Source: Escherichia coli (lineage in GTDB: Bacteria > Pseudomonadota > Gammaproteobacteria > Enterobacterales > Enterobacteriaceae). Taken from it: a stretch of DNA of 64,000 nucleotides. The position numbers and the translations under genes were made by a program. Below the pieces are notes generated by a model. That model saw only the letters and a program-made list of their open reading frames with translations. It was not told the origin of the DNA and ran no database searches. Positions 8,000-59,220 of this stretch are shown here, piece by piece; the first letter of the stretch is position 1, and each line of letters begins with the position of its first letter. The stretch is from assembly GCF_016026235.1 (NCBI RefSeq), contig NZ_CP065613.1; one strand, given 5' to 3'.

Positions 8000-8003
8000 A
8001 CGA

Positions 8004-8109: not shown

Positions 8110-8137
8110 AAAATATTGGCACGCCTTTTGCCAATAA
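8110..8137 (+). promoter_or_regulatory. Candidate sigma-28-type promoter upstream of lafB
   Basis: GCCAATAA at 8130-8137 (7/8 to -10 consensus GCCGATAA), 27 bp upstream of lafB ATG; -35 match weak. Confidence 0.3.
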
Positions 8138-8163
8138 CCTGACATCGTTACCCGGAGTCATCA

Positions 8164-9480: not shown

Positions 9481-9502
9481 CTCAGAAGGAATATCCCTAA
9501 AG

Positions 9503-9895: not shown

Positions 9896-9899
9896 GACG

Positions 9900-31029: not shown

Positions 31030-31275
31030 TGCATTGAATGATAAAAATGGCGCAAATACAGCGCCATTTTTATAGGTTAAAAACATTGCTTTTTATATTC
31101 TGATTCAGATAGTCAGTGAGTATATCGCGCTACTTCAGGATGATGTAGATCCGAAGAACGCTACAGAAGAGAGGCATTGTTGCTGGCAAATAGAAGAAGT
31201 ATCGGGTTTTGTTGCCCCTAAAAACGAAGCCCCGCTATTACAGTAGGCGGGGCAGTGCAATTAATTATTGTATGT

Positions 31276-38168: not shown

Positions 38169-38780
<612 letters not shown>

Positions 38781-39163
38781 TTACAGGTACATTCAGTTTC
38801 TTTAGTAAATCGGAAGTAAATAAGATACGTAGCACATATCAATATAGGTTAAACGACATTAAGTTTTAATTATTTCGATTAGGTTTAAATTTATGTTTTT
38901 TTCCTGATGAGTGTCAATATGTGAACAGAAAATGAATTCCATGGTTAAGTCAATATTTACAAAAAATGAAAATATTGCTTTTTTGATAAGAAGAAAAAGA
39001 CATTCAGTTTCATAAGGTTATTGGCAATATAACGTTCAATTCTTACTTGCATTTTATATTAGCCAGGAACTTTGCCCTAAGGTGTTAGGAATAGTCTTAA
39101 TGTGTTGTGTAATGGACTAGTAAAAAAACAAGTTTAAATGATAAGAAATAGAATATAAAACTA

Positions 39164-39388
39164 TCATGAGTCATAATTAAAGATGATTTGCCAATCAGTA
39201 AGGTGTTTTAATGGATTAACATGCCGCACAAAATGGTTATGGGTGTTCATTCCAATAAGTGATGAAAAATTAAACAGGTGTAAGTACGTCATCTGTCCGG
39301 TAAGCCCCCTAAGAGCCAAATTAAGTGAAGTTAAACGAAGACTGCCAGTTGTCACAGGAACGATGGCCTCTTTGCCAGGGCACTGCAT
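39164..39388 (-). CDS. Hypothetical small protein (possibly ykgL-like)
   Basis: 74-aa ORF in the ecpR–ykgO gap; no motif recognised. Confidence 0.3.
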   Translation of the reverse strand: MQCPGKEAIVPVTTGSLRLTSLNLALRGLTGQMTYLHLFNFSSLIGMNTHNHFVRHVNPLKHLTDWQIIFNYDS

Positions 39389-39794
39389 TCAGTCATCTGT
39401 GCGCGTTACTCTAACTGGCACTCGAACGTCGGCGATGGGGTTACCGGTGGATCAGGCCGTTCCTGTGGCGTAAACGTTTTTATGTCAGTACCAACAGATT
39501 TACCACATTTATCATCTTAACAGTTTGAGTGTAAATGCAGGCTGCGTCGCAAAGGGAGGAAACTGAGTGGCGTGTTCAGTCTAAAAGAGGGTTGATGCCA
39601 GCATACAGGGCGAAGCTGGTCAACAAGTCAACATTAATATAATGGAATATTCGGAGAGAAACGTCAGGCAGTTGACCTTAAATGAACAGGAAGATACATC
39701 CCCAGGAAAATTAATGCTGGTGTAATAAATACACCAACATTAATCCGGTCTGATTATTAATCAGACAAATATCGTTAATCCGTCGAATTTTGAA

Positions 39795-39935
39795 TCAACG
39801 TTTTTTCTTACGACCCTGAACGGCCTTAAAACGTGGATTAGATTTACAAATCACATATAGCCGTCCTTTTCGCTTCACAATCTGACAGTCTGGATGGCGT
39901 TCTTTTGCGGTACGAAGAGAGTTAAGAACTTTCAT
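39795..39935 (-). CDS. ykgO: Ribosomal protein L36 paralog (zinc-independent type)
   Basis: 46-aa [49 protein letters not shown]; start overlaps ykgM stop. Confidence 0.85.
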
Positions 39936-40201
39936 CACGCCCCCTTTTTCGTGCTAACAAAACGACCAAAACGTTGGGTGAATCGTGCAACATTTCCTTC
40001 TGATGCCACTGTTCTCAGCTTCCCTGTATAGAACGGGTGCGATTTCGAAGAGACATCAATTGTTACGTACGGATACGTTACGCCATCCAGCTCAATCTCA
40101 CGGTCTGTTTTGATAGTCGAGCCGATTTTAAAGTACTCATCAACACTGGTGTCGTGGAACACCACAGTACGATACTCAGGATGGATATTGGGCTTCATCA
40201 T
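39935..40201 (-). CDS. ykgM: Ribosomal protein L31 paralog (zinc-independent type)
   Basis: [19 protein letters not shown]… L31 type B; start could be either of two adjacent Met codons. Confidence 0.85.
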
Positions 40202-40209
40202 TTTTACCT

Positions 40210-40227
40210 GTTATGTTATAACATAAC
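40210..40227. promoter_or_regulatory. Zur box (zinc uptake regulator operator) upstream of ykgM-ykgO
   Basis: Perfect 18-bp palindrome GTTATGTTATAACATAAC, 9 bp upstream of ykgM start. Confidence 0.75.
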
Positions 40228-40561
40228 TATAAAGATACATGCTCATCCGGATCATTTCAACACCCAATCCCTGTGACCATTAGTGATATGTGGAATTTCC
40301 TCAACGGGGAACTCTGGCATTGTTAACAGCCATTGGTGACGCTCCCATAAACGCCTGGATGAGTGATTGATGATAGTTTCGCTGAGAGTATGGATTTTTC
40401 GAGAATGGAGGTTATCTCCACTTTACTGGCCGATGATTTATCGCAGTATGATTGATTACCTGACAGCGTGTATTCCTCTCCCACGGATATAATAATTACT
40501 TACAAAAAGGGAGAGGATGCATATTTTAAATATCACTGAAGTGAACAGTTTATTGCCGTTA

Positions 40562-40663
40562 TTAATAGAAATGGAGAAATAAATAGGCGTATTCTACAAT
40601 TGCGACAAAAACAACGATATTAATCAGTTTATGACTGATTTGTTGTACTTTATTCTCTTTCAT
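40562..40663 (-). CDS. ykgR: Small membrane protein (33 aa), YkgR-like
   Basis: MKENKVQQISHKLINIVVFVAIVEYAYLFLHFY with GAGGAAG SD; below the ORF track size cut-off. Confidence 0.5.
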   Translation of the reverse strand: MKENKVQQISHKLINIVVFVAIVEYAYLFLHFY

Positions 40664-41136
40664 TGGTACTTCCTCGCTTTAAAAAAGAGCGCACTTCGTA
40701 AGTGCCCTTATATAAATAACGAGTTTGGTCAACCAATTTTTTGACATGTATCACAAATTTGAATAGATGTATTACATCGGCTATCTTTTATTGCACCAAC
40801 GTCATTGATATATGTCGCCTGAAGTCAGTTCCGGGAATGAGTCTGATCTCAAGACTGGCCCAGTCCTGGCGTTGATTGGCGCTGAGGAGCATATCGCATC
40901 TCATCATAATGTCGTATCTCCTGGGGTGTTATACAAGATATCGTTGTTGGTAACCTGGGCGAGGAATTGAGCTCTATTAAACCGTCAACTATGCCGGATA
41001 CATACTGGATTACACTGCAGGCACGCCTTATGAGAGAACGTGCCGCAGTGACGGGTTAATTATCTGAAAGAATTTGTGAGGCTGTATCGGTTACTCATTG
41101 ATTTGATAGTTTTACTCTCGGGAGAGTAATAGATAT

Positions 41137-42279
41137 TTAATCCATTAACGGAAACCAGCCAGTTCCTTTCGATGCCTGAATTTGATCCCATAGTTTATCC
41201 GGAATGGTTAATTCAGGAACAAGTTGTGGATTAAGGGTTGTTTGAATTTCATGGCCTCTACCTGATTCAGCTAAAGTCACCCATTCTGGATTTATCACCA
41301 GCCCTTTACCGATCGCAACAAGTGGCAGGCCAGTGGAGATTGCTTCTTGAGCCTGAGACGGTGTGCGTATTTTACCTGCAGCGATTACCGGCACTCTGCC
41401 TGCAATATGATTTAAAATCAATTCAATAGTTCGGGGGCCATTTGGCGACTCAACAGGGTAGCTTTCGTTAATACTGACCAGCGAGGTATGTATATACGAA
41501 ATACCGGATGAAATGAGCCGATCAAGGAGTTTATAAGTATCCTCTATCCGCAGTCCCCCTGTTGCAGATTCTTCAGGAGATATTCTGTAACCGATGGCAA
41601 AGGGCTTTGTCGCATATTCATAGACTACATTTTTTACTTCCTGTAATACGGCCAGCGGGAAGCTCATACGTCCTTCGAGATCTCCTCCCCATCGGTCATT
41701 ACGCTGGTTAAATAGAGGGGAGAAGAAATTCTGTAGAAGGAATCCGTGCGCACCATGAAGTTCAATGCCATCAAAACCTGCTTTAATCGCCCTTTTTGTG
41801 ACATCTCCGAATGCTCTAATGGTTTCCTGAATTTCGTTTTCAGTCATTTCCCTGCTTTGTACCACTCTCTTCATAAAGTCACCAGTTTTTACGCTTGATG
41901 CGCTGGCACTAATAACATCGTTATTTGGTACAAGCTCCGGGATGGCTTTATTACCGGCGTGGAAAATCTGCAAAATAGCCGGAGCACCCCCACTTTGGGC
42001 TGCCGCTGCTAACTTTTCAAGGCTGTTAATGAAACGGTCGTCATACGCGGCAAATTCATGAGTAAACCCAATGCCGCTTGGCGTGACATAGGTACATCCT
42101 GTTATTACTAAACCAACATTTTGTGAGCGGCGTTTATAAAATTCGAGTTCTTGCTCAGAGATGGTTCCATCAGGATTCGCTGACCAGGTCGTCATAGGAG
42201 CCATAACGATACGATTACGTAGCTTTATTTTTTCTGTCAGCATAAAAGGAGAAAACAATGATGGGTGTTTATTTGTCAT
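41137..42279 (-). CDS. Old-yellow-enzyme family NADH:flavin oxidoreductase / ene-reductase
   Basis: 380-aa ORF with OYE TIM-barrel signatures (…LQIFHAGNKA… ; …GIELHGAHGFLLQNFFSP…). Confidence 0.8.
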   Translation of the reverse strand: MTNKHPSLFSPFMLTEKIKLRNRIVMAPMTTWSANPDGTISEQELEFYKRRSQNVGLVITGCTYVTPSGIGFTHEFAAYDDRFINSLEKLAAAAQSGGAPAILQIFHAGNKAIPELVPNNDVISASASSVKTGDFMKRVVQSREMTENEIQETIRAFGDVTKRAIKAGFDGIELHGAHGFLLQNFFSPLFNQRNDRWGGDLEGRMSFPLAVLQEVKNVVYEYATKPFAIGYRISPEESATGGLRIEDTYKLLDRLISSGISYIHTSLVSINESYPVESPNGPRTIELILNHIAGRVPVIAAGKIRTPSQAQEAISTGLPLVAIGKGLVINPEWVTLAESGRGHEIQTTLNPQLVPELTIPDKLWDQIQASKGTGWFPLMD

Positions 42280-42522
42280 AACAATACCTCAAATGTTTAT
42301 CTGATTTTGATGCGTATGTTTTAACTGGTTAGTTGTTGCCAGCTTTGGAATCAAGATTTCTGGCTTTATTTATAATCCCTTCAAAGGATTTCTAATAATC
42401 TTAATAATTGAGTTGCTGCTTTTTTGTTTTTTAATGAAATTTCTTTTTGAGTAATTTTATTATTGTTGTGTAGTCAATAAAGGATAAATGTCAGGGAAAT
42501 AAGGGATCTCCCTGTAGGATTA

Positions 42523-43443
42523 TTACAAATGTGTTTTATAAAAAGGAATTAATTTATCGAGTGCCTGTTTCACAGGTTCTGGCTTATCATACAGGTCGTA
42601 ATGTGAATAACCTTCAACCACGACCAGCTCTTTATGTTTTGAGGCAGCGCGGCCAATAATTTCGCAGCCGTCACGGTAGGCACCAAATGCGCCCACTCTA
42701 TCGCCCACCACAACCATTATTGGTTGAGTTAACAGGACTTCTGCAAGATGAAATGCATCCCAACCCACGGCAACAGTCTGATGTGAGAATAGCGAACGAT
42801 TTACCCCATTAGGTGCATAGCCTCGTGGCGAACGATAATATTCTGTGGCTTCAAAAAGGTCTATTTCTGTTAATCCCGCTTCAAGAGCTGCATCCGGAGA
42901 AGAGGGGAGTAAATCATCTACGCGAAGTTTTGCGCCGTTAGCTTCGTCTGTTCTTTGTTGCGCCATTGCTTCGAGTGCTCCGATAGGATTAAACGCTGTA
43001 AATCCCTCACGCATAAGACGCCCGTAGTTTGCACCCGTGACAGTACCAATAGCTTTAATTCGACGTTCTGTCATTGCGGCATTAATGGCATATCCACCTC
43101 CACCACAAATACCCAGTACACCAATACGCCCGGCATCAACGTAAGGTAAGCTGGTAAGGTAATCAACGACAATGCTGAAGTCTTTTACTCGCATTGTTGG
43201 ATCTTCCAGATAACGCGGTTCTCCACCGCTGCTTCCCTGAAAACTGGCATCAAAAGCAATGACGATAAAGCCAGCTTTTGCCAGGGCGGCACCATACACA
43301 CTACCCGATGTCTGTTCTTTGCAGCTTCCAATTGGATGGGCGCTGATAATGGCAGGATACTTTTTTTCACTATTAAAATCGTCAGGGAAATAGATATCAG
43401 CAGCTATATCCCAGTAAGTGTGTTTTATCGAAACAGTTTTCAT
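42523..43443 (-). CDS. Alpha/beta-fold hydrolase (dienelactone-hydrolase-like)
   Basis: 306-aa ORF with nucleophile-elbow-like GICGGGG and conserved His near C-terminus. Confidence 0.7.
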   Translation of the reverse strand: MKTVSIKHTYWDIAADIYFPDDFNSEKKYPAIISAHPIGSCKEQTSGSVYGAALAKAGFIVIAFDASFQGSSGGEPRYLEDPTMRVKDFSIVVDYLTSLPYVDAGRIGVLGICGGGGYAINAAMTERRIKAIGTVTGANYGRLMREGFTAFNPIGALEAMAQQRTDEANGAKLRVDDLLPSSPDAALEAGLTEIDLFEATEYYRSPRGYAPNGVNRSLFSHQTVAVGWDAFHLAEVLLTQPIMVVVGDRVGAFGAYRDGCEIIGRAASKHKELVVVEGYSHYDLYDKPEPVKQALDKLIPFYKTHL

Positions 43444-43599
43444 TTCAAGCTCCGGGGATTTGCCTAAACAGATTTAAATATCATTTCTATTATCCGCAAC
43501 TGGCATTTGTGTTCATATCGAGAACGGCGTAATAGTATGACTTGTATTGGTTATCATCAATGGTCTAATATCTATCACAGTGTTAAGTTAAGGTTTACA

Positions 43600-44524
43600 A
43601 TGATGAAAATAGAGCCTTCAATTTTGCCTTCTCTTGCCTGGTTTGCGCTGATTGTTCGTGCCGGCAGTTTTTCCAGAGCCGCTTCTGAAATGGGTATTAC
43701 GCGGGCCGCATTGTCCCAGAATTTAAAATCTCTTGAGGAACGTCTTAACACCAAGCTGATATACCGTACGACCCGCAATATGTCGCTTACTGAGGAAGGA
43801 CTGCGTCTGTATGAAGTGCTGGTGTCGGCTTTGGGGCAAATTGATGATGCTTTGAAAGATGTTGGTGATACCCAACTTGAACCTACAGGCCTGTTGAGAA
43901 TAAATTCCTCCCGTGTTGCAGCACGGATGCTTGTTGAGCCTCATATTGGCGAGTTTCTTACTCGTTACCCCAAAACAAAGATAGAACTCATTATGGATGA
44001 CGGTTTATCTAACATTATTGCGGACGGCTGTGATGTGGGCATACGTCTTGAGCAAGGACTGGATGAGCATATGACTGCCGTTCCTGTTTCTCCGCTTATT
44101 AAACTGGTTACTGTGGCATCGCCAGATTATTTAAAAGAACACGGTATTCCTGAAACGCCTCAGGAACTGAGTAACCATAATTGCCTTCGGTTGCGGCATA
44201 AAAGTAGCGGTGCACTCTCTGCATGGGAGTTTTCTAATGTTGCGGGCGGGAATGAAGAGTTCGAAATAGAGGTTTCAGGTAAGTATATTTCTAATGATGA
44301 CGAAAGCATGATACGAATGGCGCTGAATGGAACGGGTATCATTCAACATCTGGATTTTGCAATCGCTGAACATATCAATGCGGCAAGTTACAGCCGATTC
44401 TTGAGGATTGGGCTGTTTCATTTCCTGGGTTTTATATTTATGTTTCATCACGGGTGAGAATGCCCTCTAAAGTTCGTGCTTTTATTGATTTTATGGTGGA
44501 GAAAAGAGTAAAACTCGAAAATTG
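43600..44524 (+). pseudogene. LysR-family transcriptional regulator with a frameshift near the C-terminus
   Basis: HTH start MMKIEPSILPSLAWFALIVRAGSFSRAASEMGIT; the track ORF ends at 44457 in non-LysR sequence, while the canonical LysR C-terminus (GKLQPILEDWAVSFPGFYIYVSS…KVRAFIDFMVEKR) is encoded in another frame from ~44382 to 44524. Confidence 0.7.
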
Positions 44525-44674
44525 ATGATATGTGTCAGAATATCGGTAAGAAGAATGGCGCAATCGTGAGAATACGTTTATTCATAATAAATATCCTGAA
44601 AGTTTAGAATTATTTTCGATACAGCCAGATTATCATTGTTACTAATAATGTGGTTAAAATAATAGCATCTATGA

Positions 44675-47611
<2,937 letters not shown>

Positions 47612-48083
47612 TCATAAATCTGTTTGAGTGTTGCGATGGGTAGTGCAAGTTCGATATCTCCGCAATTTACAGTCCGATGAAGGAAAATGAATATCCATAA
47701 AAAATATATCGGTTTATCCTGGCGTATATACCTACTTCGACGTATTTCCAATAGTTGCTAATTAAAGGCAGGTCATTATTATTCACTCTGAATAATGAAT
47801 TATTCACTGTCCGCAGAGTAAGAAATATAACTTAGGTATCTATTTAATGACTTGCACAAAAAGCTAAATTTTCACCCATAAATAAAAATATAATCCCGCG
47901 CCCAACCACCTGATGAGTGGCTACAGGCACTGGATATATTAGGTGGCGGTGTACTTTCTTACATAAAGGTATTTCCTTTTCTGCGGAAAAGGAAACCGGG
48001 AAATCCCCGGTTTTTCTGACAAGCAGACGCCATTATTTGTGTCTGCCTATGTTCGTTAATTCGTTCATCAGGAAATTATCTCA

Positions 48084-51000
48084 ATGTCACGTTATAAAAC
48101 AGGTCATAAACAACCACGATTTCGTTATTCAGTTCTGGCCCGCTGCGTGGCGTGGGCAAATATCTCTGTTCAGGTTCTTTTTCCACTCGCTGTCACCTTT
48201 ACCCCAGTAATGGCGGCACGTGCGCAGCATGCGGTTCAGCCACGGTTGAGCATGGGAAATACCATGGTAACTGCTGATAATAATGTGGAGAAAAATGTCG
48301 CGTCGTTTGCCGCAAATGCCGGGACATTTTTAAGCAGTCAGCCAGATAGCGATGCGACACGTAATTTTATTACCGGAATGGCCACCGCTAAAGCTAACCA
48401 GGAAATACAGGAGTGGCTCGGGAAATATGGTACAGCGCGCGTCAAACTGAATGTCGATAAAGATTTCTCGCTGAAGGATTCTTCGCTGGAAATGCTTTAT
48501 CCGATTTATGATACGCCGACAAATATGTTGTTCACTCAGGGGGCAATACATCGTACAGACGATCGTACTCAGTCAAATATTGGTTTTGGCTGGCGTCATT
48601 TTTCAGGAAATGACTGGATGGCGGGGGTGAACACCTTTATCGACCATGATTTATCCCGTAGTCATACCCGCATTGGTGTTGGTGCGGAATACTGGCGCGA
48701 TTATCTGAAACTGAGCGCCAATGGTTATATTCGGGCTTCTGGCTGGAAAAAATCGCCGGATATTGAGGATTATCAGGAACGCCCGGCGAATGGTTGGGAT
48801 ATCCGCGCAGAGGGCTATTTACCTGCCTGGCCGCAGCTTGGCGCAAGCCTGATGTATGAACAGTATTATGGCGATGAAGTCGGGCTGTTTGGTAAAGATA
48901 AGCGCCAGAAAGACCCGCATGCGATTTCTGCCGAGGTGACCTATACGCCAGTGCCTCTTCTGACACTGAGCGCTGGGCATAAGCAGGGCAAGAGCGGTGA
49001 GAATGACACTCGCTTTGGCCTGGAAGTTAACTACCGAATTGGCGAACCTTTGGCGAAACAACTCGATACGGATAGCATTCGCGAGCGTCGGGTACTGGCA
49101 GGCAGCCGCTATGACCTGGTTGAGCGTAATAACAACATCGTTCTTGAGTACCGCAAATCTGAAGTGATCCGTATTGCTCTGCCTGAGCGTATTGAAGGTA
49201 AGGGCGGTCAGACACTTTCCCTCGGGCTTGTGGTCAGCAAAGCAACTCACGGACTGAAAAATGTGCAGTGGGAAGCGCCGTCATTACTGGCTGAAGGTGG
49301 CAAAATTACCGGTCAGGGTAGTCAGTGGCAAGTAACGCTCCCGGCTTATCGTCCAGGCAAAGACAATTATTATGCGATTTCTGCGGTTGCCTACGATAAC
49401 AAAGGCAATACCTCAAAACGCGTGCAGACAGAGGTGGTCATTACCGGAGCTGGTATGAGCGCCGATCGCACGGCGTTAACGCTTGACGGTCAGAGCCGTA
49501 TTCAAATGCTTGCTAACGGTAATGAGCAAAAACCGCTGGTGCTGTCTCTGCGCGACGCCGAGGGCCAGCCAGTCACGGGCATGAAAGATCAGATCAAGAC
49601 TGAACTAACTTTCAAACCGGCTGGAAATATTGTGACTCGTTCCCTGAAGGCCACTAAATCACAGGCAAAGCCAACACTGGGTGAGTTCACCGAAACTGAA
49701 GCAGGGGTGTATCAGTCTGTCTTTACTACCGGAACGCAGTCAGGTGAGGCAACGATTACTGTTAGCGTTGATGGCATGAGCAAAACCGTCACTGCAGAAC
49801 TGCGGGCCACGATGATGGATGTGGCAAACTCCACCCTGAGCGCTAACGAGCCGTCAGGTGACGTGGTTGCTGATGGTCAGCAAGCCTATACGTTGACGTT
49901 GACTGCGGTGGACTCCGAGGGTAATCCGGTGACGGGAGAAGCCAGCCGCTTGCGATTTGTTCCGCAAGACACTAATGGTGTAACCGTTGGTGCCATTTCG
50001 GAAATAAAACCAGGCGTTTACAGCGCCACGGTTTCTTCGACCCGTGCCGGAAACGTTGTTGTGCGTGCTTTCAGCGAGCAGTATCAGCTGGGCACATTAC
50101 AACAAACGCTGAAGTTTGTTGCCGGGCCGCTTGATGCAGCACATTCGTCCATCACCCTGAATCCTGATAAACCGGTGGTTGGGGGTACAGTTACGGCAAT
50201 CTGGACGGTAAAAGATGCCTATGACAACCCTGTGACCAGCCTCACGCCGGAAGCGCCGTCATTAGCGGGTGCCGCTGCTGAAGGTTCTACGGCATCGGGC
50301 TGGACAAATAATGGTGATGGGACGTGGACTGCGCAGATTACTCTCGGCTCTACGGCGGGTGAATTAGAAGTTATGCCGAAGCTAAATGGACAGAATGCGG
50401 CAGCAAATGCGGCAAAAGTAACCGTGGTGGCTGATGCGTTATCTTCAAACCAGTCGAAAGTCTCTGTCGCAGAAGACCACGTAAAAGCCGGCGAAAGCAC
50501 AACCGTGACGCTGGTGGCGAAAGATGCGCATGGCAACGCTATCAGTGGTCTTGCGTTGTCGGCAAGTTTGACGGGGACCGCCTCTGAAGGGGCGACCGTT
50601 TCCAGTTGGACCGAAAAAGGTGACGGTTCCTATGTTGCTACGTTGACTACAGGCGGAAAGACGGGCGAGCTTCGCGTCATGCCGCTCTTCAACGGCCAGC
50701 CAGCAGCCACCGAAGCCGCGCAGTTGACGGTCATCGCTGGGGAGATGTCATCAGCGAACTCTACGCTTGTTGCGGACAATAAGGCTCCGACCGTCAAAAC
50801 GACGACGGAACTCACCTTCACCGTGAAGGATGCGTACGGGAACCCGGTCACCGGGCTGAAGCCAGATGCACCAGTGTTTAGCGGTGCCGCCAGCACGGGG
50901 AGTGAGCGTCCTTCAGCAGGAAACTGGACAGAGAAAGGTAATGGGGTCTACGTGGCGACCTTAACGCTGGGATCTGCCGCGGGTCAGTTGTCTGTGATGC

Positions 51001-52340
51001 CGCGAGTGAACGGCCAAAATGCCGTTGCTCAGCCACTGGTGCTGAACGTTGCAGGTGACGCATCTAAGGCTGAGATTCGTGATATGACAGTGAAGGTTAA
51101 TAACCAACTGGCTAATGGACAGTCTGCTAACCAGATAACCCTGACCGTCGTGGACAGCTATGGTAATCCGTTGCAGGGGCAAGAAGTTACGCTGACTCTG
51201 CCGAAAGGTGTGACCAGCAAGACGGGGAATACGGTAACAACCGATGCGGCAGGTAAAGCCGACATTGAGCTGATGTCAACGGTTGCGGGAGAACACAATA
51301 TTTCCGCTTCGGTGAATGGTGCTCAGAAGACGGTCACGGTGAAATTCAAGGCGGATTTCAGTACCGGTCAGGCGACCCTGGAGGTTGATGGCAGCACGCC
51401 AAAAGTGGCAAACGACAATGATGCCTTTACGCTGACGGCAACGGTTAAGGATCAATACGGCAACCTTCTGCCTGGCGCTGTGGTCGTCTTTAATCTGCCT
51501 CGGGGCGTCAAACCGCTTGCAGACGGTAATATCATGGTGAACGCCGACAAGGAGGGTAAAGCGGAACTGAAAGTGGTCTCCGTGACTGCCGGAACGTATG
51601 AGATCACGGCGTCGGCAGGAAATGACCAGCCTTCAAATGCGCAGTCTGTAACGTTTGTGGCCGATAAGACTACGGCGACCATCTCCAGTATTGAGGTGAT
51701 TGGCAACCGTGCAGTGGCGGATGGCAAAACCAAACAGACGTATAAAGTTACGGTGACTGATGCCAATAACAACCTGTTGAAGGATAGCGACGTGACGCTG
51801 ACTGCCAGCTCGGAAAATTTAGTTCTGGATCCTAAAGGGACGGCGAAAACTAATGAGCAAGGACAGGCTGTTTTCACCGGCTCTACCACTATCGCAGCGA
51901 CATATACACTCACGGCGAAAGTGGAACAGGCCAACGGTCAGGTATCGACGAAAACTGCTGAATCTAAATTCGTCGCGGATGATAAAAACGCGGTGCTCGC
52001 CGCATCTCCAGAACGTGTAGATTCTCTGGTGGCGGACGGGAAGACTACTGCAACAATGACGGTTACCCTGATGGCGGGAGTCAATCCCGTAGGAGGAAGT
52101 ATGTGGGTCGACATTGAGGCTCCGGAAGGAGTGACGGAGAAGGATTATCAATTCCTGCCGTCGAAGGCTGACCATTTCTCAGGTGGGAAAATCACGCGTA
52201 CATTTAGTACCAGCAAGCCAGGTGTCTATACGTTCACATTCAACGTACTGACGTATGGCGGGTACGAAATGGCGCCTGTGAAGGTGACAATTAACGCCGT
52301 TGCTGCAGAGACTGAAAATGGCGAGGAGGAGATGCCATAA
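48084..52340 (+). CDS. eaeH: Intimin/invasin-family inverse autotransporter adhesin (EaeH/FdeC-type), full length
   Basis: 1418-aa ORF: N-terminal beta-barrel region followed by many Big-type repeats including three ~100-aa near-repeats (…GELEVMPKLNGQNAAANAAKVTVVA / …GELRVMPLFNGQPAATEAAQLTVIA / …GQLSVMPRVNGQNAVAQPLVLNVA). Confidence 0.85.
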   Translation: MSRYKTGHKQPRFRYSVLARCVAWANISVQVLFPLAVTFTPVMAARAQHAVQPRLSMGNTMVTADNNVEKNVASFAANAGTFLSSQPDSDATRNFITGMATAKANQEIQEWLGKYGTARVKLNVDKDFSLKDSSLEMLYPIYDTPTNMLFTQGAIHRTDDRTQSNIGFGWRHFSGNDWMAGVNTFIDHDLSRSHTRIGVGAEYWRDYLKLSANGYIRASGWKKSPDIEDYQERPANGWDIRAEGYLPAWPQLGASLMYEQYYGDEVGLFGKDKRQKDPHAISAEVTYTPVPLLTLSAGHKQGKSGENDTRFGLEVNYRIGEPLAKQLDTDSIRERRVLAGSRYDLVERNNNIVLEYRKSEVIRIALPERIEGKGGQTLSLGLVVSKATHGLKNVQWEAPSLLAEGGKITGQGSQWQVTLPAYRPGKDNYYAISAVAYDNKGNTSKRVQTEVVITGAGMSADRTALTLDGQSRIQMLANGNEQKPLVLSLRDAEGQPVTGMKDQIKTELTFKPAGNIVTRSLKATKSQAKPTLGEFTETEAGVYQSVFTTGTQSGEATITVSVDGMSKTVTAELRATMMDVANSTLSANEPSGDVVADGQQAYTLTLTAVDSEGNPVTGEASRLRFVPQDTNGVTVGAISEIKPGVYSATVSSTRAGNVVVRAFSEQYQLGTLQQTLKFVAGPLDAAHSSITLNPDKPVVGGTVTAIWTVKDAYDNPVTSLTPEAPSLAGAAAEGSTASGWTNNGDGTWTAQITLGSTAGELEVMPKLNGQNAAANAAKVTVVADALSSNQSKVSVAEDHVKAGESTTVTLVAKDAHGNAISGLALSASLTGTASEGATVSSWTEKGDGSYVATLTTGGKTGELRVMPLFNGQPAATEAAQLTVIAGEMSSANSTLVADNKAPTVKTTTELTFTVKDAYGNPVTGLKPDAPVFSGAASTGSERPSAGNWTEKGNGVYVATLTLGSAAGQLSVMPRVNGQNAVAQPLVLNVAGDASKAEIRDMTVKVNNQLANGQSANQITLTVVDSYGNPLQGQEVTLTLPKGVTSKTGNTVTTDAAGKADIELMSTVAGEHNISASVNGAQKTVTVKFKADFSTGQATLEVDGSTPKVANDNDAFTLTATVKDQYGNLLPGAVVVFNLPRGVKPLADGNIMVNADKEGKAELKVVSVTAGTYEITASAGNDQPSNAQSVTFVADKTTATISSIEVIGNRAVADGKTKQTYKVTVTDANNNLLKDSDVTLTASSENLVLDPKGTAKTNEQGQAVFTGSTTIAATYTLTAKVEQANGQVSTKTAESKFVADDKNAVLAASPERVDSLVADGKTTATMTVTLMAGVNPVGGSMWVDIEAPEGVTEKDYQFLPSKADHFSGGKITRTFSTSKPGVYTFTFNVLTYGGYEMAPVKVTINAVAAETENGEEEMP

Positions 52341-52479
52341 TTTGAATAGTATGAAAGTTACGATCTAATAAAGAATAATGGTGTTGAAATATTCAACGCC
52401 ATTATTCACTGAATACCTTGCCTGATACTGATTAAATAGTATCAGGCAAGGATAAAACTCAATAAGAGATAGTGACCAA

Positions 52480-53364
52480 CTAAACCGGACGAACGGGAAT
52501 AAAAATTTCGCAAACAACATCATTGCCATCCTTTTCTACGAAATCTTCATTGTAATAAAAGCGCTCAATATCGCTGCCGTTCACTCTGGCTAACCCCCTG
52601 GCAGGCAACTCTATCAGATAGATGTTACGCACCCAGTCAGGATAATTTTCCCAGTTTCCTTCATAACGGAAAGAGGCATAAAGTCCTCGGGTCGTTGTCC
52701 ACTCTTTTGGCATGTCAGCATATTCACATACCGTACCAGCAAAAGTTTCAACCGTGAGCAAATCGACCGATTTTGTTGACGGTTCAAACGTGGAGACGAA
52801 ATAGATATCCGTCTTATAATTCTTCATACATCTGGCTAAATGATGACGTCGTAGTTTGACTTCTTCATCCGGTGATTTATTCGACACCTCAATGTCATAT
52901 TTAAATGAGTTGCCAAAAATAGGTGTCTCAGGAAAGTTGACTAATCGACACTCCGTCTTTTGCTGTTGACGTATTAAAAAAGAAGGGAAGATATTTGCGA
53001 GATCCCAATAATCACGGTGGCGGTATTCACGGGGAGAGCAGCCGAATAACTTTTTAAATTCGCGGCTGAATGACTGCTGTGAATCAAAATGCAAAGAGAG
53101 TGCAATATCAAGCATAGATTTCGCGGTGAGCCGGACAAGAATGGCGGCACGGCAAAGCCTTCGTTTGCGAATGTATTCTCCCAAAGGCACATGCATGAAA
53201 TTTCGGAACAGAAGCTGGATGTTGCGTCTGCTGTAGCCAGATTTCTGTGCGATATCTTCGATTGAAATAGGGTGCTCAAGATTGCACTCAATCCACTCCA
53301 GGAGCTGCTGTAGAATCTTCTGCCTGATCATCACATTCTCCATTAATTCTTCGTCATATCGCAC
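52480..53364 (-). CDS. ykgA: AraC-family transcriptional regulator with C-terminal effector-binding domain
   Basis: 294-aa ORF with AraC HTH region near N-terminus (…IAQKSGYSRRNIQLLFRNF…). Confidence 0.75.
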   Translation of the reverse strand: MRYDEELMENVMIRQKILQQLLEWIECNLEHPISIEDIAQKSGYSRRNIQLLFRNFMHVPLGEYIRKRRLCRAAILVRLTAKSMLDIALSLHFDSQQSFSREFKKLFGCSPREYRHRDYWDLANIFPSFLIRQQQKTECRLVNFPETPIFGNSFKYDIEVSNKSPDEEVKLRRHHLARCMKNYKTDIYFVSTFEPSTKSVDLLTVETFAGTVCEYADMPKEWTTTRGLYASFRYEGNWENYPDWVRNIYLIELPARGLARVNGSDIERFYYNEDFVEKDGNDVVCEIFIPVRPV

Positions 53365-53562
53365 ATTTTCGTTATGCCCTGGGCCCTAGTGTATCAAAAA
53401 CAGCAAGTCCGAAGGCAAAAGCACTGGTAGCGTCTGCTTCATTGCCCAAAAAATAGAGAGGTTTCAGTCCTACATTATTAATGAATTTTTTGCATAAGTG
53501 ATATCAAAATCCACATACTAATTTGAGGTTACGTTTTAACGTAGACTCATTGTTCATGCCTA

Positions 53563-54447
53563 ATGGAGGGACTGACAGTGGAATTTTCCGTATTAAGTAA
53601 CAATCTGAAAATGCCGATGATGGGATTTGGTGTTTTTCAGGTTACCGATAAAAACGTGTGCAAACAGTCAGTGTTGAACGCTATCCGCACGGGGTATCGA
53701 CTCATCGACACTGCAGCGGTATACGGTAATGAAGATGCTGTCGGTGAAGCCGTTCGTGAAGCCATATCCGAAGGTTTATGTACCCGAGAAGAGTTATTTA
53801 TAACGTCTAAATTGTGGGTGCAGGATATGTTGAATCAGGATACGGCAGCAGCAGGTATTGAAGCATCATTAAAAAAATCGGGACTAGAATACTTCGACCT
53901 CTATTTATTGCATCAGGCTATGCGCGATTATTTCAGTGCGTGGCGTGCACTCGAAGATGCCTATGAAGAGGGCAAATTAAAAGCGATTGGGGTTTCCAAT
54001 TTCTATCCTCATGTTCTGGCGAACTTTTGTGAAACGGTAAGAGTTAAACCGATGGTCAACTAGGTCGAGTTGCATCCCTATTTTGCCCAACCAGAGGCGC
54101 TGGCAACCATGAAGTATTATAACGTGCAGCCTGAAGCATGGGCTCCGTTAGGTGGTGGACGACATAAACCCTTTGAAAATAATCTGCTTCAGAGTATTGC
54201 AGATGCCCATCAAAAATCGATTTTTCAAGTCATTCTGCGTTGGAATATTCAACGGGGAGTGGTCGTTATTCCGAAATCGACACATCAACAGCGTATCGAA
54301 GAAAATTTCGCTATCTGGGATTTCTCACTGACAGAGAAAGAAATGGCACAAATTAGTTCGCTTGATTTGGGTTATGTTGGGGAGTCGGTAAAACATTTTA
54401 ATCCTGAATTTGTTCGTGGTTGTCTTGCTGTAAAAATACATGATTGA
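53563..54447 (+). pseudogene. Aldo-keto reductase interrupted by an in-frame amber codon
   Basis: Two same-frame ORFs (53563-54063, 54070-54447) separated only by TAG at 54061-54063; translation reads …PMVN*VELHPYF… where AKRs have NQVE(x)HP. Confidence 0.75.
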
Positions 54448-54606
54448 TATTAATCATGTATTTTTCCTGAGACGACAAGAATCTTTTAACAGGGGAGTGA
54501 TATTGATCTTCACTCTGTCATATCTCCGGTAATATGGCGTCAGGCTTCATCATCAGAAAGGGGGCCTGACGCCTGAAAAAGTGAACAACAGACAGTGTTC
54601 GGATTA

Positions 54607-55200
54607 TCAATATTCAGTTTTTAACGTTGAACTGGATTCATTACTGCGTTGTTTAAGAATTTCCCGCGCCGAATCTGCCATTATCATGACAGCACCTGCC
54701 AGCATCAGAGTATCTTTCAATACCAAGCGACCAGCACCGGATAAATAAGGGAAACCATGATGAGCGTCACCCAATGCGGGTACCCATGCCTCCGGGGTGG
54801 TGATTAAAAATGAGAGTGTTACCAACGGTGTGGTAAATGCCATCAGCCCTCCCAATAAACCTAACCAGCGATTGACAGGATTAGCCAAAACCAGCAGAGC
54901 AATAATCACCTCCACGACGCCAAGACCGTTGGAAAAACCATAGGTATTATTGGCCGATTGCCATGCCCTTGCTTCTGGTTTGTATTCGCCTTCGTGAGTC
55001 AGATACTGTTTATAGTCTTCCGGGTGTTCATAAAAGAACGACATTAGTGGACTGTTTGCGACGAATGGTGTAATGCTGTCTGCCTCGTAAGGGACAAACT
55101 TTAATAACCCAATCCACATAAAAACAATTGCAATACTCAGACGAATCAATGTCAGGCCAATTTTATCTCCCCGACTTAACAGGTGCAGGTATTTTTCCAT
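54607..55200 (-). CDS. rclC: DoxX-like inner membrane protein of the reactive-chlorine response
   Basis: Multi-TM ORF adjacent to rclB/rclA; ORF extends to 55209. Confidence 0.8.
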   Translation of the reverse strand: MEKYLHLLSRGDKIGLTLIRLSIAIVFMWIGLLKFVPYEADSITPFVANSPLMSFFYEHPEDYKQYLTHEGEYKPEARAWQSANNTYGFSNGLGVVEVIIALLVLANPVNRWLGLLGGLMAFTTPLVTLSFLITTPEAWVPALGDAHHGFPYLSGAGRLVLKDTLMLAGAVMIMADSAREILKQRSNESSSTLKTEY

Positions 55201-55211
55201 TGTGAACATCC

Positions 55212-55448
55212 TTATTTATACAATACTGCTGTTGCGGTTGAATTATTATCAATTCGCATCGATGTGACTTTCCAGGATGAAGCATTATATTTTCTGGCTA
55301 TATCAGCAATGGCATCCTCCAGAACTGTCGGTGATGCTGATACTGACGAGACGCTGATATGTTTCAGAATTATTTTATCATCTGCATTGGTGGAAAATGC
55401 CATAACGCCAGATAATAGTGTTGCAAATAAAACAGATTTTTTAAACAT
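55212..55448 (-). CDS. rclB: Small periplasmic protein of the reactive-chlorine response
   Basis: Signal peptide then ~60-aa mature domain; ORF extends to 55463. Confidence 0.75.
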   Translation of the reverse strand: MFKKSVLFATLLSGVMAFSTNADDKIILKHISVSSVSASPTVLEDAIADIARKYNASSWKVTSMRIDNNSTATAVLYK

Positions 55449-55556
55449 ATAAAATACCATCAATGAAGTGATTAAGAAGTTATAGAGTAACAGGGAATTA
55501 ATAAGATTCTTTTCTCTGAGACGCCAGAATATTTGTTCTGGCGTCTGATTTTGAGT

Positions 55557-56882
55557 TTATTTGACTAATGAAAATAGATCATTGAGTGATTCGCTCATCG
55601 ACGGATGAGTAAATATCTGATCGCGTAATATGCTATAAGGCAGCCCGGCATCCATCACCATTTTCACTATATTAATCATCTCGTGGGAGTCAACACACAG
55701 CAGTGATGCCCCTAATATACGTTGGGTTTTATTATCAACAATCGCTTTTAATACCCCACGGGTATCGTTCATCACTCTGGCACGCGGAATTGCAGCTACA
55801 GGCAATGTCACCACCTGAATATCAGCACCACTCTCTCTGGCTTGTTCTTCTGTCATACCAACCCTGGACAGGGGCGGTGTCATAAATACGGAATAAGGCA
55901 CATTTTTCCGATCATCAGTACTACGTTTGCCTTCACCCAGTAACTCATCACGTACAATGCGGTAATCATCCAGTGATATGTAAGTAAATTGCAGCCCGCC
56001 GGTAACATCTCCCATCGCCCAAATATTGTCTGCGGTGGTATGTAATCGCTTGTCAACGACAATTGCCCCACGCTCGTTTACTGCGATACCGGCATTTTCT
56101 GGATGTAACGAAGCGGTAGCCGGTTGACGACCGGAAGCTATTAACAGTGCATCCACCGCCAGTTGGGCGTGCTCGCTATGCACTTGCACTTGATTTTCAT
56201 GGTGACTGATTCGCTCCACATGGGCATTGAGGATAATATCGACGCCCTGATCGCGTAAAATCGTCGCGATATTATCAGCAATATCCCGATCTTCCCGAGG
56301 CAAAAACAGCGAAGCTGCTTCTAAAATGGTTACCTTGCTGCCAAAATTAGCGAACATAGAGGCGAACTCAACGCCAATATATCCGCCGCCCAAAATATCT
56401 AAATGCCCAGGCAATTCTTTTAGATTAAGTAATCCGGTGCTGTCATATACACCAGGCGTGGTGGTAATTCCAGGAATTGGCGGAACCACGGTTTGTGCAC
56501 CGGTATTAATAAAAATTTTCTCGCCATGAATTTCCAGATTTCCCTCAGGCCGATGAACACGCAGGCTATGATTATTGATAAACTCCGCCTGGCCGTCGAT
56601 CACGTCGATATTGGGCATATCCGCAAGATTATGAAAATTCTTATTACGTAAAAAATTAACCACTTCATTTTTACGCTGTATGGCACGGACAAAATCTGTG
56701 TGCTGCTGTGCGTCATGAACCAATGTTTTGGTTGGGATGCAGCCGATATTAATACAGGTCCCGCCATACATTGCATTTGATTGTTCGATGAGAGCCACTC
56801 GCCAACCTGCTTTTGCCAGCGTGACGGCTAATGTTTTTCCAGCCTTGCCAAAACCAATAATAACTGCCTGATATTTATTCAT
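55557..56882 (-). CDS. rclA: Pyridine nucleotide-disulfide oxidoreductase (RclA)
   Basis: FAD-binding GFGKAGKT motif and redox CINIGC disulfide motif; ORF extends to 56909. Confidence 0.85.
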   Translation of the reverse strand: MNKYQAVIIGFGKAGKTLAVTLAKAGWRVALIEQSNAMYGGTCINIGCIPTKTLVHDAQQHTDFVRAIQRKNEVVNFLRNKNFHNLADMPNIDVIDGQAEFINNHSLRVHRPEGNLEIHGEKIFINTGAQTVVPPIPGITTTPGVYDSTGLLNLKELPGHLDILGGGYIGVEFASMFANFGSKVTILEAASLFLPREDRDIADNIATILRDQGVDIILNAHVERISHHENQVQVHSEHAQLAVDALLIASGRQPATASLHPENAGIAVNERGAIVVDKRLHTTADNIWAMGDVTGGLQFTYISLDDYRIVRDELLGEGKRSTDDRKNVPYSVFMTPPLSRVGMTEEQARESGADIQVVTLPVAAIPRARVMNDTRGVLKAIVDNKTQRILGASLLCVDSHEMINIVKMVMDAGLPYSILRDQIFTHPSMSESLNDLFSLVK

Positions 56883-57107
56883 GATGATTTCCTGTCGAAA
56901 CGCGTTCATTTGACATCATGACTATAGACGCAAAAGAGCAAATACCATTTCTTCACAACGCTTGATATTTTGTCTTATCGTCTGGTATTTTCTTTTTCTT
57001 AATCAGAATCACAAAACAAAAATCATGATTAACCATTTGATGGTATTAGATTAGTTATTTACTAAGATTGTTGGTGTTTGTAATCAAAAACCACTCAGGA
57101 GTCTGAT

Positions 57108-57962
57108 ATGGATGCCCTTAGCCGTTTGTTGATGCTTAACGCTCCACAAGGAACGATCGATAAGAATTGCGTGTTAGGAAGTGACTGGCAGCTTCCACAT
57201 GGTGCCGGGGAATTATCGGTTATTCGTTGGCATGCGTTAACGCGAGGAGCGGCGAAGCTGGAAATGCCGACGGGAGAGATTTTTACATTACGCCCGGGAA
57301 ATGTGGTCCTGCTACCACAAAATTCAGCTCATCGCCTGAGTCATGTCGATAATGAATCGACCTGTATTGTCTGCGGCACTCTTCGGTTGCAACATTCGGC
57401 GCGTTATTTTTTAACGTCTTTGCCGGAAACGCTGTTTTTAGCACCGGTTAACCACAGCGTGGAATATAACTGGCTGAGGGAGGCGATCCCGTTTTTACAA
57501 CAGGAATCCAGATCGGCGATGCCGGGAGTGGATGCACTGTGTAGCCAGATCTGCGCTACATTCTTTACCCTCGCGGTGCGTGAGTGGATTGCACAGGTTA
57601 ATACAGAGAAAAACATTCTCAGTTTGCTTCTGCATCCACGTCTTGGTGCGGTAATACAGCAAATGCTGGAAATGCCAGGACACGCCTGGACCGTCGAATC
57701 GCTGGCCAGCATCGCCCACATGTCTCGGGCAAGTTTTGCCCAGCTTTTCCGTGATGTTTCCGGAACCACGCCGCTGGCTGTATTAACAAAGTTGCGTCTA
57801 CAAATAGCGGCCCAGATGTTTTCCCGGGAAATGCTCCCTGTTGTGGTGATCGCTGAGTCAGTAGGCTATGCCAGTGAATCATCTTTTCACAAGGCGTTTG
57901 TCCGCGAGTTTGGTTGTACTCCGGGAGAATATCGGGAAAGGGTCAGACAGCTTGCACCCTGA
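57108..57962 (+). CDS. rclR: AraC-family redox-sensing regulator of rclABC
   Basis: 284-aa ORF divergent from rclA with C-terminal AraC HTH. Confidence 0.85.
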   Translation: MDALSRLLMLNAPQGTIDKNCVLGSDWQLPHGAGELSVIRWHALTRGAAKLEMPTGEIFTLRPGNVVLLPQNSAHRLSHVDNESTCIVCGTLRLQHSARYFLTSLPETLFLAPVNHSVEYNWLREAIPFLQQESRSAMPGVDALCSQICATFFTLAVREWIAQVNTEKNILSLLLHPRLGAVIQQMLEMPGHAWTVESLASIAHMSRASFAQLFRDVSGTTPLAVLTKLRLQIAAQMFSREMLPVVVIAESVGYASESSFHKAFVREFGCTPGEYRERVRQLAP

Positions 57963-58490
57963 ATAAAACCGCCAGAAATCAGGGCAAAGATAATCCGCAT
58001 TCCGGGAGTTGTGAGCCTTTCAACTATTTCTATTTCCAACGGTGGTTTGGGCTTTATATATTTTTTTTCTGATGGACTCTAGCTCAGTTTTTAAATAAAA
58101 ATGCAAACTAAATTGCTTCAATTAAATAAAACCCCGACTATTACTTGATACGTGATTATTGTCGGTGATTTTTTTGTACACCATCAGTGTATATCTCAAT
58201 AACCCCTGAATAAGTAGCTCTGAATAGGTATAAGGGATGTAGCCTTTTTAAATGGATTTCTTATGCCAAAAATGAACGTCGATTTCCCCATAAAATGTGA
58301 GCGATGCCGAAAGAAATAAAATTAGTTATTGCATTTGAAGTTTGGATGAAAGATTATCATTTGTCATACAAATGAGGGGTGGTATGTTGCTAGCCAATTA
58401 AAAAAGAACGCCATATTTATTGATGATTGCTCCCCCGGAAGGAGGGGAACCATCGGGCATAAATGGGCATGAAGTAATGGAGTATTAGTT

Positions 58491-59210
58491 GTGAATGTCA
58501 ATTTCTTTGTCACCTGTATTGGTGACGCCCTGAAATCAAGAATGGCACGAGACTCCGTGCTGCTACTGGAAAAACTCGGCTGTCGCGTAAATTTCCCGGA
58601 GAAACAGGGATGCTGCGGTCAGCCTGCGATCAATAGCGGTTATATCAAAGAAGCGATTCCAGGGATGAAAAATCTGATCGCCGCACTGGAGGATAACGAC
58701 GATCCCATTATTTCACCGGCTGGCTCTTGCACCTATGCCGTAAAAAGTTACCCGACGTATCTGGCGGATGAACCTGAATGGGCATCACGTGCCGAAAAGG
58801 TTGCCGCGCGTATGCAGGATCTCACCTCTTTTATTGTTAATAAATTAGGAGTAGTCGATGTAGGTGCCAGTTTGCAAGGGAGAGCTGTGTATCACCCATC
58901 TTGTAGCCTGGCCCGTAAGCTGGGAGTGAAGGACGAGCCACTTACGCTGCTGAAAAATGTGCGTGGACTGGAGCTGTTGACCTTTGCTGAACAGGATACC
59001 TGCTGCGGATTTGGCGGCACGTTCTCGGTCAAAATGGCCGAAATATCCGGCGAGATGGTGAAAGAAAAGGTTGTGCACCTGATGGAAGTCCGCCCTGAGT
59101 ATTTAATTGGTGCTGACGTGAGTTGCCTGCTGAACATCAGTGGGCGATTACAAAGGGAAGGGCAGAAAGTCAAAGTGATGCATATTGCTGAAGTGCTGAT
59201 GAGCCGCTGA
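58491..59210 (+). CDS. ykgE: LutA-like Cys-rich (CCG-domain) Fe-S oxidoreductase subunit
   Basis: 239-aa ORF with paired CCG motifs (CCGQP, CCGFGG). Confidence 0.85.
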   Translation: MNVNFFVTCIGDALKSRMARDSVLLLEKLGCRVNFPEKQGCCGQPAINSGYIKEAIPGMKNLIAALEDNDDPIISPAGSCTYAVKSYPTYLADEPEWASRAEKVAARMQDLTSFIVNKLGVVDVGASLQGRAVYHPSCSLARKLGVKDEPLTLLKNVRGLELLTFAEQDTCCGFGGTFSVKMAEISGEMVKEKVVHLMEVRPEYLIGADVSCLLNISGRLQREGQKVKVMHIAEVLMSR

Positions 59211-59220
59211 GGATATAAAG

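Follow-up and report, generated by a model that had tools for sequence, protein, structure and literature searches.

FdeC is a well-studied surface adhesin of Escherichia coli. The protein comprises 1416 residues, identity among its alleles exceeds 91%, and a crystal of residues 678-991 revealed three Ig-like domains (PMC3324786). It was reported to bind collagen, to depend on host-cell contact for its expression, with little expression in laboratory culture, and to be encoded by a pseudogene in K-12 (PMC3324786). For FdeC of CFT073 it was shown that the protein inserts into the outer membrane and displays its passenger on the cell surface; modelling yielded ten Big domains, and TAM was found to assist the assembly (PMC4943183). 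A complete fdeC was present in 67% of 126 genomes (PMC6714894). The same paper cites Easton 2014, whose title points to regulation by H-NS and temperature (PMC6714894).

The window, that is, the whole stretch of 64,000 nucleotides analysed here, contains one such gene:

48084..52340, + strand: fdeC (eaeH) coding sequence, intact inverse autotransporter adhesin (open reading frame, Pfam, orthology and identity to 4E9L)

We regard it as practically certain that an intact allele of fdeC (eaeH), a chromosomal gene of E. coli, occupies 48084-52340, encoding a type Ve inverse autotransporter adhesin of 1418 residues. The reading frame starts with ATG and comprises 1418 codons plus stop, uninterrupted, as the preliminary description had it. 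Its length and start are those of the annotated fdeC of NCTC86 (4257 nt), and the RefSeq name of the orthologue is fdeC. Identity to the FdeC-B crystal construct (PDB 4E9L) was 95.9% (397 of 414 residues, aa 595-1008). No NCBIfam model reached its cutoff with the 1418-residue protein, the best being the IatC N-terminus (650 against 2400) and intimin (391 against 1400); the name fdeC therefore rests on orthology and identity, without a dedicated HMM. Of 5426 complete E. coli genomes, 5082 have a match annotated as fdeC, and in 4585 of these 80% or more of the gene is found at a single place. It is an ordinary copy of an adhesin that was already known.

The encoded protein was divided as follows:

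48084..48308, + strand: N-terminal 75 residues, with a long basic leader, a hydrophobic stretch and a short periplasmic segment (sequence)
48309..49133, + strand: inverse-autotransporter beta-barrel (aa 76-350) and linker through the pore (PF11924, IAT_beta)
49164..50126, + strand: Ig-like domains D1-D3 (aa 361-455, 456-575, 576-681; structure match and Pfam)
50127..50441, + strand: repeat R1, Ig-like (aa 682-786; Invasin_D3, 52 bits; within 4E9L, PMC3324786)
50442..50747, + strand: repeat R2, Ig-like (aa 787-888; Invasin_D3, 55 bits; within 4E9L)
50748..51065, + strand: repeat R3, Ig-like (aa 889-994; Invasin_D3, 51 bits; within 4E9L)
51066..51956, + strand: Ig-like domains D7-D9 (aa 995-1092, 1093-1193, 1194-1291; Big_1)
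51957..52337, + strand: terminal domain D10 (aa 1292-1418), Ig-like and then a short acidic tail (Invasin_D3, 29 bits)

The N-terminal 75 residues matched no Pfam family even at E ≤ 10 and no LysM domain; a presumed signal peptide would end near ...PVMAARAQ. The preliminary description had assigned the protein to the EaeH/FdeC type and had proposed a domain search as a check, and this search located the inverse-autotransporter beta-barrel at aa 76-350, with 364-368 bits against a cutoff of 22.3 and profile positions 3-279 of 279 covered. Among solved structures, the barrels of invasin (4E1T) and intimin (4E1S) matched it as well, at 280 and 243 bits, respectively. In the passenger, nine Invasin_D3 and five Big_1 stretches were found by Pfam between aa 456 and 1418. 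The inverted order, with the barrel N-terminal and the Big/Ig-like passenger C-terminal, was confirmed, and together with orthology it bears out the assignment. D1 matched intimin D00-D0 (6TQD), while D2 and D3 matched Invasin_D3/Big_1. The strongest Big_1 scores of the protein belong to D7-D8 (139 bits) and D9 (69 bits), and invasin 1CWV matched aa 1008-1139. D10 scored under the gathering score of Invasin_D3 (29 bits, E 1e-6), and no Intimin_C match was detected in it with Pfam. The AlphaFold model of aa 1190-1418 (pLDDT 86.5) is nearly all beta-strand and displays two Ig-like domains, with intimin D0-D1 and D00-D0, invasin, InvE and InvD as best PDB matches; as modelled, the D10 tip is Ig-like and not C-type lectin-like. 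With 1418 residues where about 1416 are expected, ten delimited Ig-like segments, and neither LysM nor a lectin tip, the protein belongs with FdeC/EaeH. The reading frame, its intactness, the domain order and the orthology are established by these observations.

Three further features were delimited around the gene:

47519..48083, + strand: upstream intergenic region of fdeC (composition, alignment to NCTC86)
52373..52451, no strand assigned: two hairpins, with a 16-bp stem (52373-52407) and a 15-bp stem (52416-52451) (RNA fold)
52480..53331, - strand: ykgA-like AraC-family/GyrI-like regulator gene, the convergent neighbour (annotation in collinear genomes)

The upstream region is AT-rich (GC about 0.38), carries an AGGAA Shine-Dalgarno sequence about 10 nt 5' of the ATG, and aligns from window position 47533 on with the eaeH upstream region of NCTC86. 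One promoter-like site was located at 47755-47782. The promoter scan returned five sites against 5.7 expected, and therefore no enrichment; the terminator consensus scan likewise stayed at shuffle level. The hairpins occupy the 139-nt gap between the convergent fdeC and ykgA-like genes. This region folds at -47.5 kcal/mol (z = -10.4 against shuffles), the two hairpins being the only structures to stand out, and they are likely bidirectional terminators. The ykgA-like gene (852 nt) is annotated in collinear genomes as a helix-turn-helix domain protein, with HTH_18, HTH_AraC and GyrI-like domains. It is also kept beside a 1630-residue FdeC-like subtype, and so accompanies fdeC-type genes at another locus too.

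The locus was established as the canonical one, upstream of ykgA-like and rclCBA and downstream of ecp and ykgMO or a reductase island. Its order is two LysR genes, two aldo/keto reductases, fdeC, ykgA-like, an aldo/keto reductase, rclCBA and rclR, collinear with the annotated fdeC loci of FDAARGOS_943, NCTC86 and 14EC033. In the window, a neighbouring aldo/keto reductase has a premature stop. The claim that no IS element adjoins the gene held: within window 1-60000, probes for IS1, IS600 and ISEc60 matched flank or target-site fragments only, and no transposase is annotated across the corresponding spans of collinear genomes. The sole multi-copy element within window 1-22000 is most likely a pair of REP-derived naRNA4 repeats at 1845-2019. 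An Rfam match named 'IS009' was recorded at 31035-31233; the family is typed as gene by Rfam, and no transposase is located there in the collinear genome.

The 5426-genome E. coli collection does not contain the window allele in intact form; its closest intact counterpart there shows 99.0% identity. Compared with O157:H7, the repeat block reaches 99.1% identity and the whole gene only 95.4%, and on this comparison the window allele looks mosaic. The nearest relative overall, FDAARGOS_943 (99.9%), has fdeC broken by IS1A and IS600, with ISEc60 just upstream, and in 14EC033, the best collinear genome, fdeC is frameshifted. These two cases, the IS3 truncation in K-12-type genomes, the stop in the neighbouring reductase and the scant expression in laboratory culture (PMC3324786) would suit a gene with an intact frame that is nevertheless silent and decaying towards the pseudogene state of K-12 and of the closest relative. 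Yet the 1418 codons are uninterrupted, the Pfam scores of the domains are all normal and the whole gene is retained in the majority of E. coli genomes, so that we consider such a decay improbable here and retain the reading of an intact fdeC allele.

The three consecutive repeats of about 100 residues noted in the preliminary description do exist (aa 682-994, window 50127-51065; z = 23-26 over shuffles), although their identity is 41-47% and not the 60-70% given there. They were compared by per-domain Smith-Waterman alignment against shuffles and by an unbiased sliding self-comparison; self-BLASTP of the whole protein was uninformative, giving the diagonal only because contained HSPs are culled. 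R1 is 44% identical to R2 and 47% to R3, BLOSUM positives among the three units amount to 57-64%, and the best ungapped sub-window of 60 residues reaches 53%. Between units the DNA is 52-55% identical and exact matches extend over 8 nt at most, and neither Tandem Repeats Finder nor a second DNA repeat search detected a tandem array or a repeat family in the R1-R3 block. Of 4630 E. coli records, 4616 contain this 939-nt block whole. In 60 evenly sampled records it spans exactly 939 nt in 56, the others measuring 935, 938 and 916 nt, plus one 131-nt fragment. The divergence of the repeats and the stability of domain number across thousands of genomes are thereby established, and R1-R3, judged by their sequences, are too diverged to drive repeat-number switching.

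Length variants do occur. In a large protein collection, internal variants carry in-frame deletions of 28-306 residues, which map mostly to D2, D3 and R1; the greater part falls outside R1-R3. Six deletion junctions were examined, with microhomologies of 0, 2, 5, 5, 7 and 9 nt; several do not keep the domain register, and in no case was a repeat unit lost cleanly. In the variant P0120 (1112 residues, at least 24 contigs), D3 is fused in register to R3, at a coding motif for the conserved G-N-P-V-T-G. As the junctions indicate, short-microhomology events gave rise to these rare variants, and some of the deletions take away the antigenic FdeC-B region.

The internal variants, P0120 and the 1630-residue subtype, which has two additional R-type domains where R2 meets R3, are what a contingency-type adhesin would produce if homologous or unequal recombination between its three Ig units altered the number of domains among strains. 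This explanation is very unlikely. There is no shared DNA stretch long enough for homologous recombination, the whole block lies in one place in nearly every record, and the junctions, most of them in D2-R1, bear the short and often out-of-register microhomologies described above. Moreover, the extra domains of the 1630-residue form are only 32-44% identical to R1-R3 and the form occupies another locus, so the difference must be old. The preliminary view of the repeats as material for recombination and changes in length is thus unsupported, and the comparison of repeat number suggested for it showed the number to be fixed.

A more tentative idea concerns the deletions themselves. Those that recur, rarely and in frame, at short motifs of the Ig array (e.g. 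G-N-P-V-T-G) might be functional, selected antigen-loss forms lacking part or all of FdeC-B (aa ~597-1008); we hold this to be possible but rather unlikely. If true, natural antigen-loss forms would be relevant to vaccines based on FdeC, FdeC-B being a protective-antigen fragment, and the window's allele would share the latent breakpoints of these variants.

For the intact fdeC allele, a mode of action can be proposed, its secretion route, ligands and regulation being taken from the cited papers and from what is known of the family. The N-terminal signal peptide would direct export across the inner membrane. A 12-stranded IAT beta-barrel (aa 76-350) would then enter the outer membrane, aided by BAM and TAM, and the C-terminal passenger would thread outward through it and fold into a rod of ten Ig-like domains projecting from the cell surface. 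This rod may bind epithelial cells and collagens I, III, V and VI, and may promote cell aggregation and biofilm. Expression would normally be low, reportedly induced by host-cell contact and, as far as the cited title tells, under H-NS and temperature control. R1-R3 are Ig-like domains 4-6, the crystallised, antigenic FdeC-B region; they go back to old duplications, may now serve as structural spacer or binding modules, and do not form an active recombination substrate.

The practical value of these results is limited. An adhesin that is broadly conserved and a vaccine candidate is retained at full length in the window's genome; in K-12 and in the relative closest to the window among sequenced genomes, IS elements have disrupted it. 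In addition, the idea that Ig-domain repeats make fdeC hypervariable in length is corrected.

That the gene is instead an orthologue of intimin (eae) or Yersinia-type invasin, whose C-terminal lectin-like domain would bind Tir or beta-1 integrin, deserves hardly any credence: the barrel and Big domains are common to all, the structural matches include both proteins, and the NCBIfam models gave 391 bits (intimin_all) and 310 bits (Inv N-terminus), but these scores are far under the cutoffs of 1400 and 710, LysM and Intimin_C matches are lacking, the tip is modelled as nearly all beta-strand and Ig-like, and the annotated flanks (window 42000-60000) contain no LEE or Tir genes. Membership in the intimin family was accordingly rejected (390.6 bits, domain content, Ig-like tip), and so was membership among Yersinia-type invasins, whose lectin-like terminal domain (integrin-binding D4-D5 superdomain) is missing.

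In topology FdeC is of type Ve, like intimin (Eae) and Yersinia invasin; the beta-barrels of the three are homologous, and each carries a rod made of Big domains. FdeC differs from the other two in its ten extracellular domains, where they have four or five, and in lacking LysM and a C-type lectin-like tip, and LEE genes are absent from its annotated flanks. Contingency-type repeat proteins have near-identical tandem DNA repeats with long exact homology, which the window fdeC does not possess, and a strain length polymorphism in whole repeat units, which fdeC does not follow. In the 1630-residue FdeC-like subtype (P0102 cluster, 234 member sequences), the barrel is 96% identical, the domain types are the same and the same AraC/GyrI-like neighbour follows downstream. 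The two extra R-type Ig domains of this subtype are inserted behind residue 884; in the distal domains, identity to the window protein is 66-80%. The locus is another one, beside sulfatase, radical-SAM and SbmA-like genes. Its origin as a duplication-derived allele of the window type was rejected, the extra domains being as diverged as the others and the locus different.

The eaeH pseudogene of K-12 occupies the same locus, and its first 876 nt are 98.2% identical to the window copy. Only these 5' 876 nt are left in K-12, followed by IS3, and part of ykgA is lost too, whereas the window copy is full length and without IS; the contrast with an IS-truncated copy is therefore real. FdeC of ExPEC IHE3034 (ECOK1_0290) and EaeH of ETEC H10407 are the same gene at the same locus, with the same barrel and ten Ig-like domains. 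The window protein measures 1418 residues against 1416 in IHE3034 (PMC3324786), the DNA identity of the whole gene to E. coli alleles is about 92-99%, and the differences from IHE3034 FdeC and H10407 EaeH are allelic only.

The gene at window 48084-52340 (plus strand) is the well-known, previously described fdeC (eaeH). Its parts are as follows.

aa 76-350: inverse-autotransporter beta-domain
aa 361-455, 456-575 and 576-681: Ig-like passenger domains D1, D2 and D3
aa 682-786, 787-888 and 889-994 (window 50127-51065): repeat units R1, R2 and R3
aa 1292-1418: terminal domain D10

The ORF listing of the window gave a single ATG-started frame, which was translated over 1418 aa without interruption, and its length (4257 nt) and start agree exactly with the fdeC annotation in E. 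coli NCTC86. The Pfam beta-domain scored 364 bits (cutoff 22.3), with essentially the full profile covered. The identification as an EaeH/FdeC-type adhesin made in the preliminary description stands, as does its uninterrupted 1418-codon frame. A megablast search of 5426 complete E. coli genomes matched the gene in 5082, and in 4585 of these a single place held 80% or more of it; the matches listed are annotated as "fdeC: inverse autotransporter adhesin FdeC". PDB entry 4E9L (FdeC-B fragment) aligned to aa 595-1008 with 831 bits and 397 of 414 residues identical. The flanks are also those of the known fdeC locus: upstream, a pair of LysR genes and a pair of aldo/keto reductases; downstream, a convergent ykgA-like AraC-type gene, an aldo/keto reductase, rclCBA and rclR. 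That downstream reductase (53578-54447, plus strand) carries a premature stop at codon 162 (CAG to TAG at 54061) and is a pseudogene unless the stop is a sequencing error; the ORF is intact (289 aa) in FDAARGOS_943 and 14EC033.

Pfam detected nine Invasin_D3 and five Big_1 stretches in the protein. When it was cut into slices, Ig-like matches were found in all passenger segments but the first (aa 361-455), which resembled the intimin D00-D0 structure 6TQD in a PDB comparison. The match of the last segment (aa 1292-1418) to Invasin_D3 was weak (29 bits). LysM and Intimin_C domains were detected neither in the whole nor in the sliced protein. An AlphaFold model of aa 1190-1418 (nine sequences in the input alignment, mean pLDDT 86.5) was beta-strand nearly throughout and formed two Ig-like domains, and its top PDB matches were the tandem Big domains of intimin, invasin, InvE and InvD. 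On the basis of the Pfam slices, the model and the PDB matches, the FdeC tip is Ig-like rather than lectin-like. The protein falls in none of the subfamilies IatC, Ilp, intimin, Inv, SinH and YchO, since every NCBIfam score was far under its cutoff.

The three consecutive units of about 100 aa are clearly related, with alignment z-scores 23-26 above shuffles. They are the three Ig-like domains of the 1.9-Å crystal structure of FdeC residues 678-991 (PMC3324786). The 60-70% identity first attributed to them was an overestimate, as shown by the measured amino-acid identity.

Table. Similarity between R1, R2 and R3 and repeat content of fdeC.
Amino-acid identity between units: 41-47%
BLOSUM positives between units: 57-64%
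Best ungapped 60-aa window between units: 53%
DNA identity between units: 52-55%
Longest exact DNA run common to units: 8 nt
Longest exact direct repeat anywhere in fdeC: 16 nt
Tandem Repeats Finder arrays: none

Repeat number was compared by searching the 939-nt R1-R3 block in E. coli records. It was matched in 4630, and at least 80% of it lay in one place in 4616 of these. In 60 rows taken evenly down the ranking the span was exactly 939 nt in 56, and 935, 938 and 916 nt in three others; the last was a 131-nt fragment. Variation by whole units is thus not supported. Among the 120 best FdeC clusters in a collection of 5.8 billion proteins, most were 1413-1420 aa long, and a minority had internal in-frame deletions of 28-306 aa, mainly at residues 454-728, in D2, D3 and R1.

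Table. Junctions of the six deletion variants with DNA recovered.
285 nt: microhomology TACCGGA (7 nt)
918 nt: 2 nt exact, lying in an imperfectly matched stretch of about 17 nt at the G-N-P-V-T-G motif; D3 joined to R3 in register; seen in at least 24 contigs
306 nt: 0 nt microhomology; D3+47 to R1+42
588 nt: GGGTG (5 nt); D2+76 to R1+45
666 nt: TCACC (5 nt); R1+8 to R3+22
114 nt: GTCAGGTGA (9 nt)

The pattern is consistent with rare illegitimate deletion of the slippage type and not with unequal crossing-over between the units. The proposal that the repeats are a substrate for recombinational length variation fails both on sequence (shared runs of at most 8 nt) and in the population.

The allele itself looks mosaic, because the R1-R3 block is 99.1% identical to O157:H7 genomes but the whole gene just 95.4%. 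The block is 99.9% identical to that of strain EC1515. Gene-wide identity across E. coli is about 92-99%, and that of the 18-kb neighbourhood is 97.7-98.6% among the best-matching genomes listed.

In K-12-type genomes just the first 876 nt of fdeC remain, followed by IS3, and that copy has been termed a pseudogene (PMC3324786). The nearest relative of the window, FDAARGOS_943 (99.9% identity), has ISEc60 inserted 61 nt ahead of the fdeC start (window 47998-48008), IS1A and IS600 within the gene (48271-48285 and 50808-50810) and an IS1-linked deletion of 38179-45531. Apart from it, no genome of the E. coli collection exceeded 99.0% identity over fdeC. The three elements are all absent from the window, and collinear annotated genomes have no transposase over 1-60000, in agreement with the earlier statement that no IS lies beside the gene. 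Given the three IS sites and the deletion in this relative, the window looks like the undisrupted state of an IS-rich lineage. In 14EC033, the best fully collinear genome (98.6% over 18 kb), fdeC (6078-10330 of the extracted locus) is annotated as frameshifted, which is another independent route to gene loss.

GC content is about 0.38 in the 565-nt gap upstream of fdeC and higher, 0.51-0.59, within the gene. Expression is reported to be induced upon host-cell contact (PMC3324786), and the title of Easton 2014 (cited in PMC6714894) names regulation by H-NS and temperature; the AT-rich gap is compatible with H-NS control, although no proof of it. At 47971-48024 (plus strand), 60-110 nt upstream of the start, lie two hairpin-forming stretches, ATTTCCTTTTCTGCGGAAAAGGAAAC and CCGGGGAAATCCCCGGTTTTT. 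The latter resembles an intrinsic terminator; the ISEc60 target site of FDAARGOS_943 overlaps it. Two strong hairpins at 52373-52451 (folding z = -10.4) probably serve as terminators for transcripts of both fdeC and the convergent ykgA-like gene. According to what is known of the family and to published work, FdeC would be exported via Sec and its barrel inserted into the outer membrane with the aid of BAM/TAM (PMC4943183); the passenger would then leave as a hairpin and form a rod of ten Ig-like domains. It may bind epithelial cells and collagens I, III, V and VI, and contribute to aggregation and biofilm formation.

Elsewhere in the window, collinearity with an annotated genome at 97.4% marks 1-14300, upstream of dinB, as the distal half of a Flag-2 lateral-flagellar cluster, with flgH/I/K/L, lafA, fliD, fliS, fliK, a FliA-type sigma factor, motA and lafU. 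Its hook-associated gene (4435-5412) has an open frame of 325 aa in the window and is frameshifted in the annotated collinear reference genome. The stretch 1-22000 matched a median of 28 places in each E. coli genome and holds one multi-copy element; this is most likely the tandem pair of naRNA4 (REP-derived) elements at 1845-1922 and 1942-2019 (plus strand), which probably accounts for that median. Downstream of yagU, 31035-31233 (plus strand) matched Rfam IS009 (188 bits), which Rfam types as a gene; the collinear genome has no annotated transposase at that position.

Two additional R-type domains lie at the R2/R3 border in a 1630-aa FdeC-like subtype represented by 234 member sequences. These domains are just 32-44% identical to R1-R3 and represent an ancient difference. 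The genomic locus of the subtype is unlike that of the window fdeC: in three comparison loci (L007-L009) the gene, at 5001-9893, adjoins sulfatase, radical-SAM and SbmA-like genes. An AraC/GyrI-like gene is nevertheless kept convergent downstream, as with the window fdeC, and its retention at this other locus suggests that adhesin and regulator travel as a pair.
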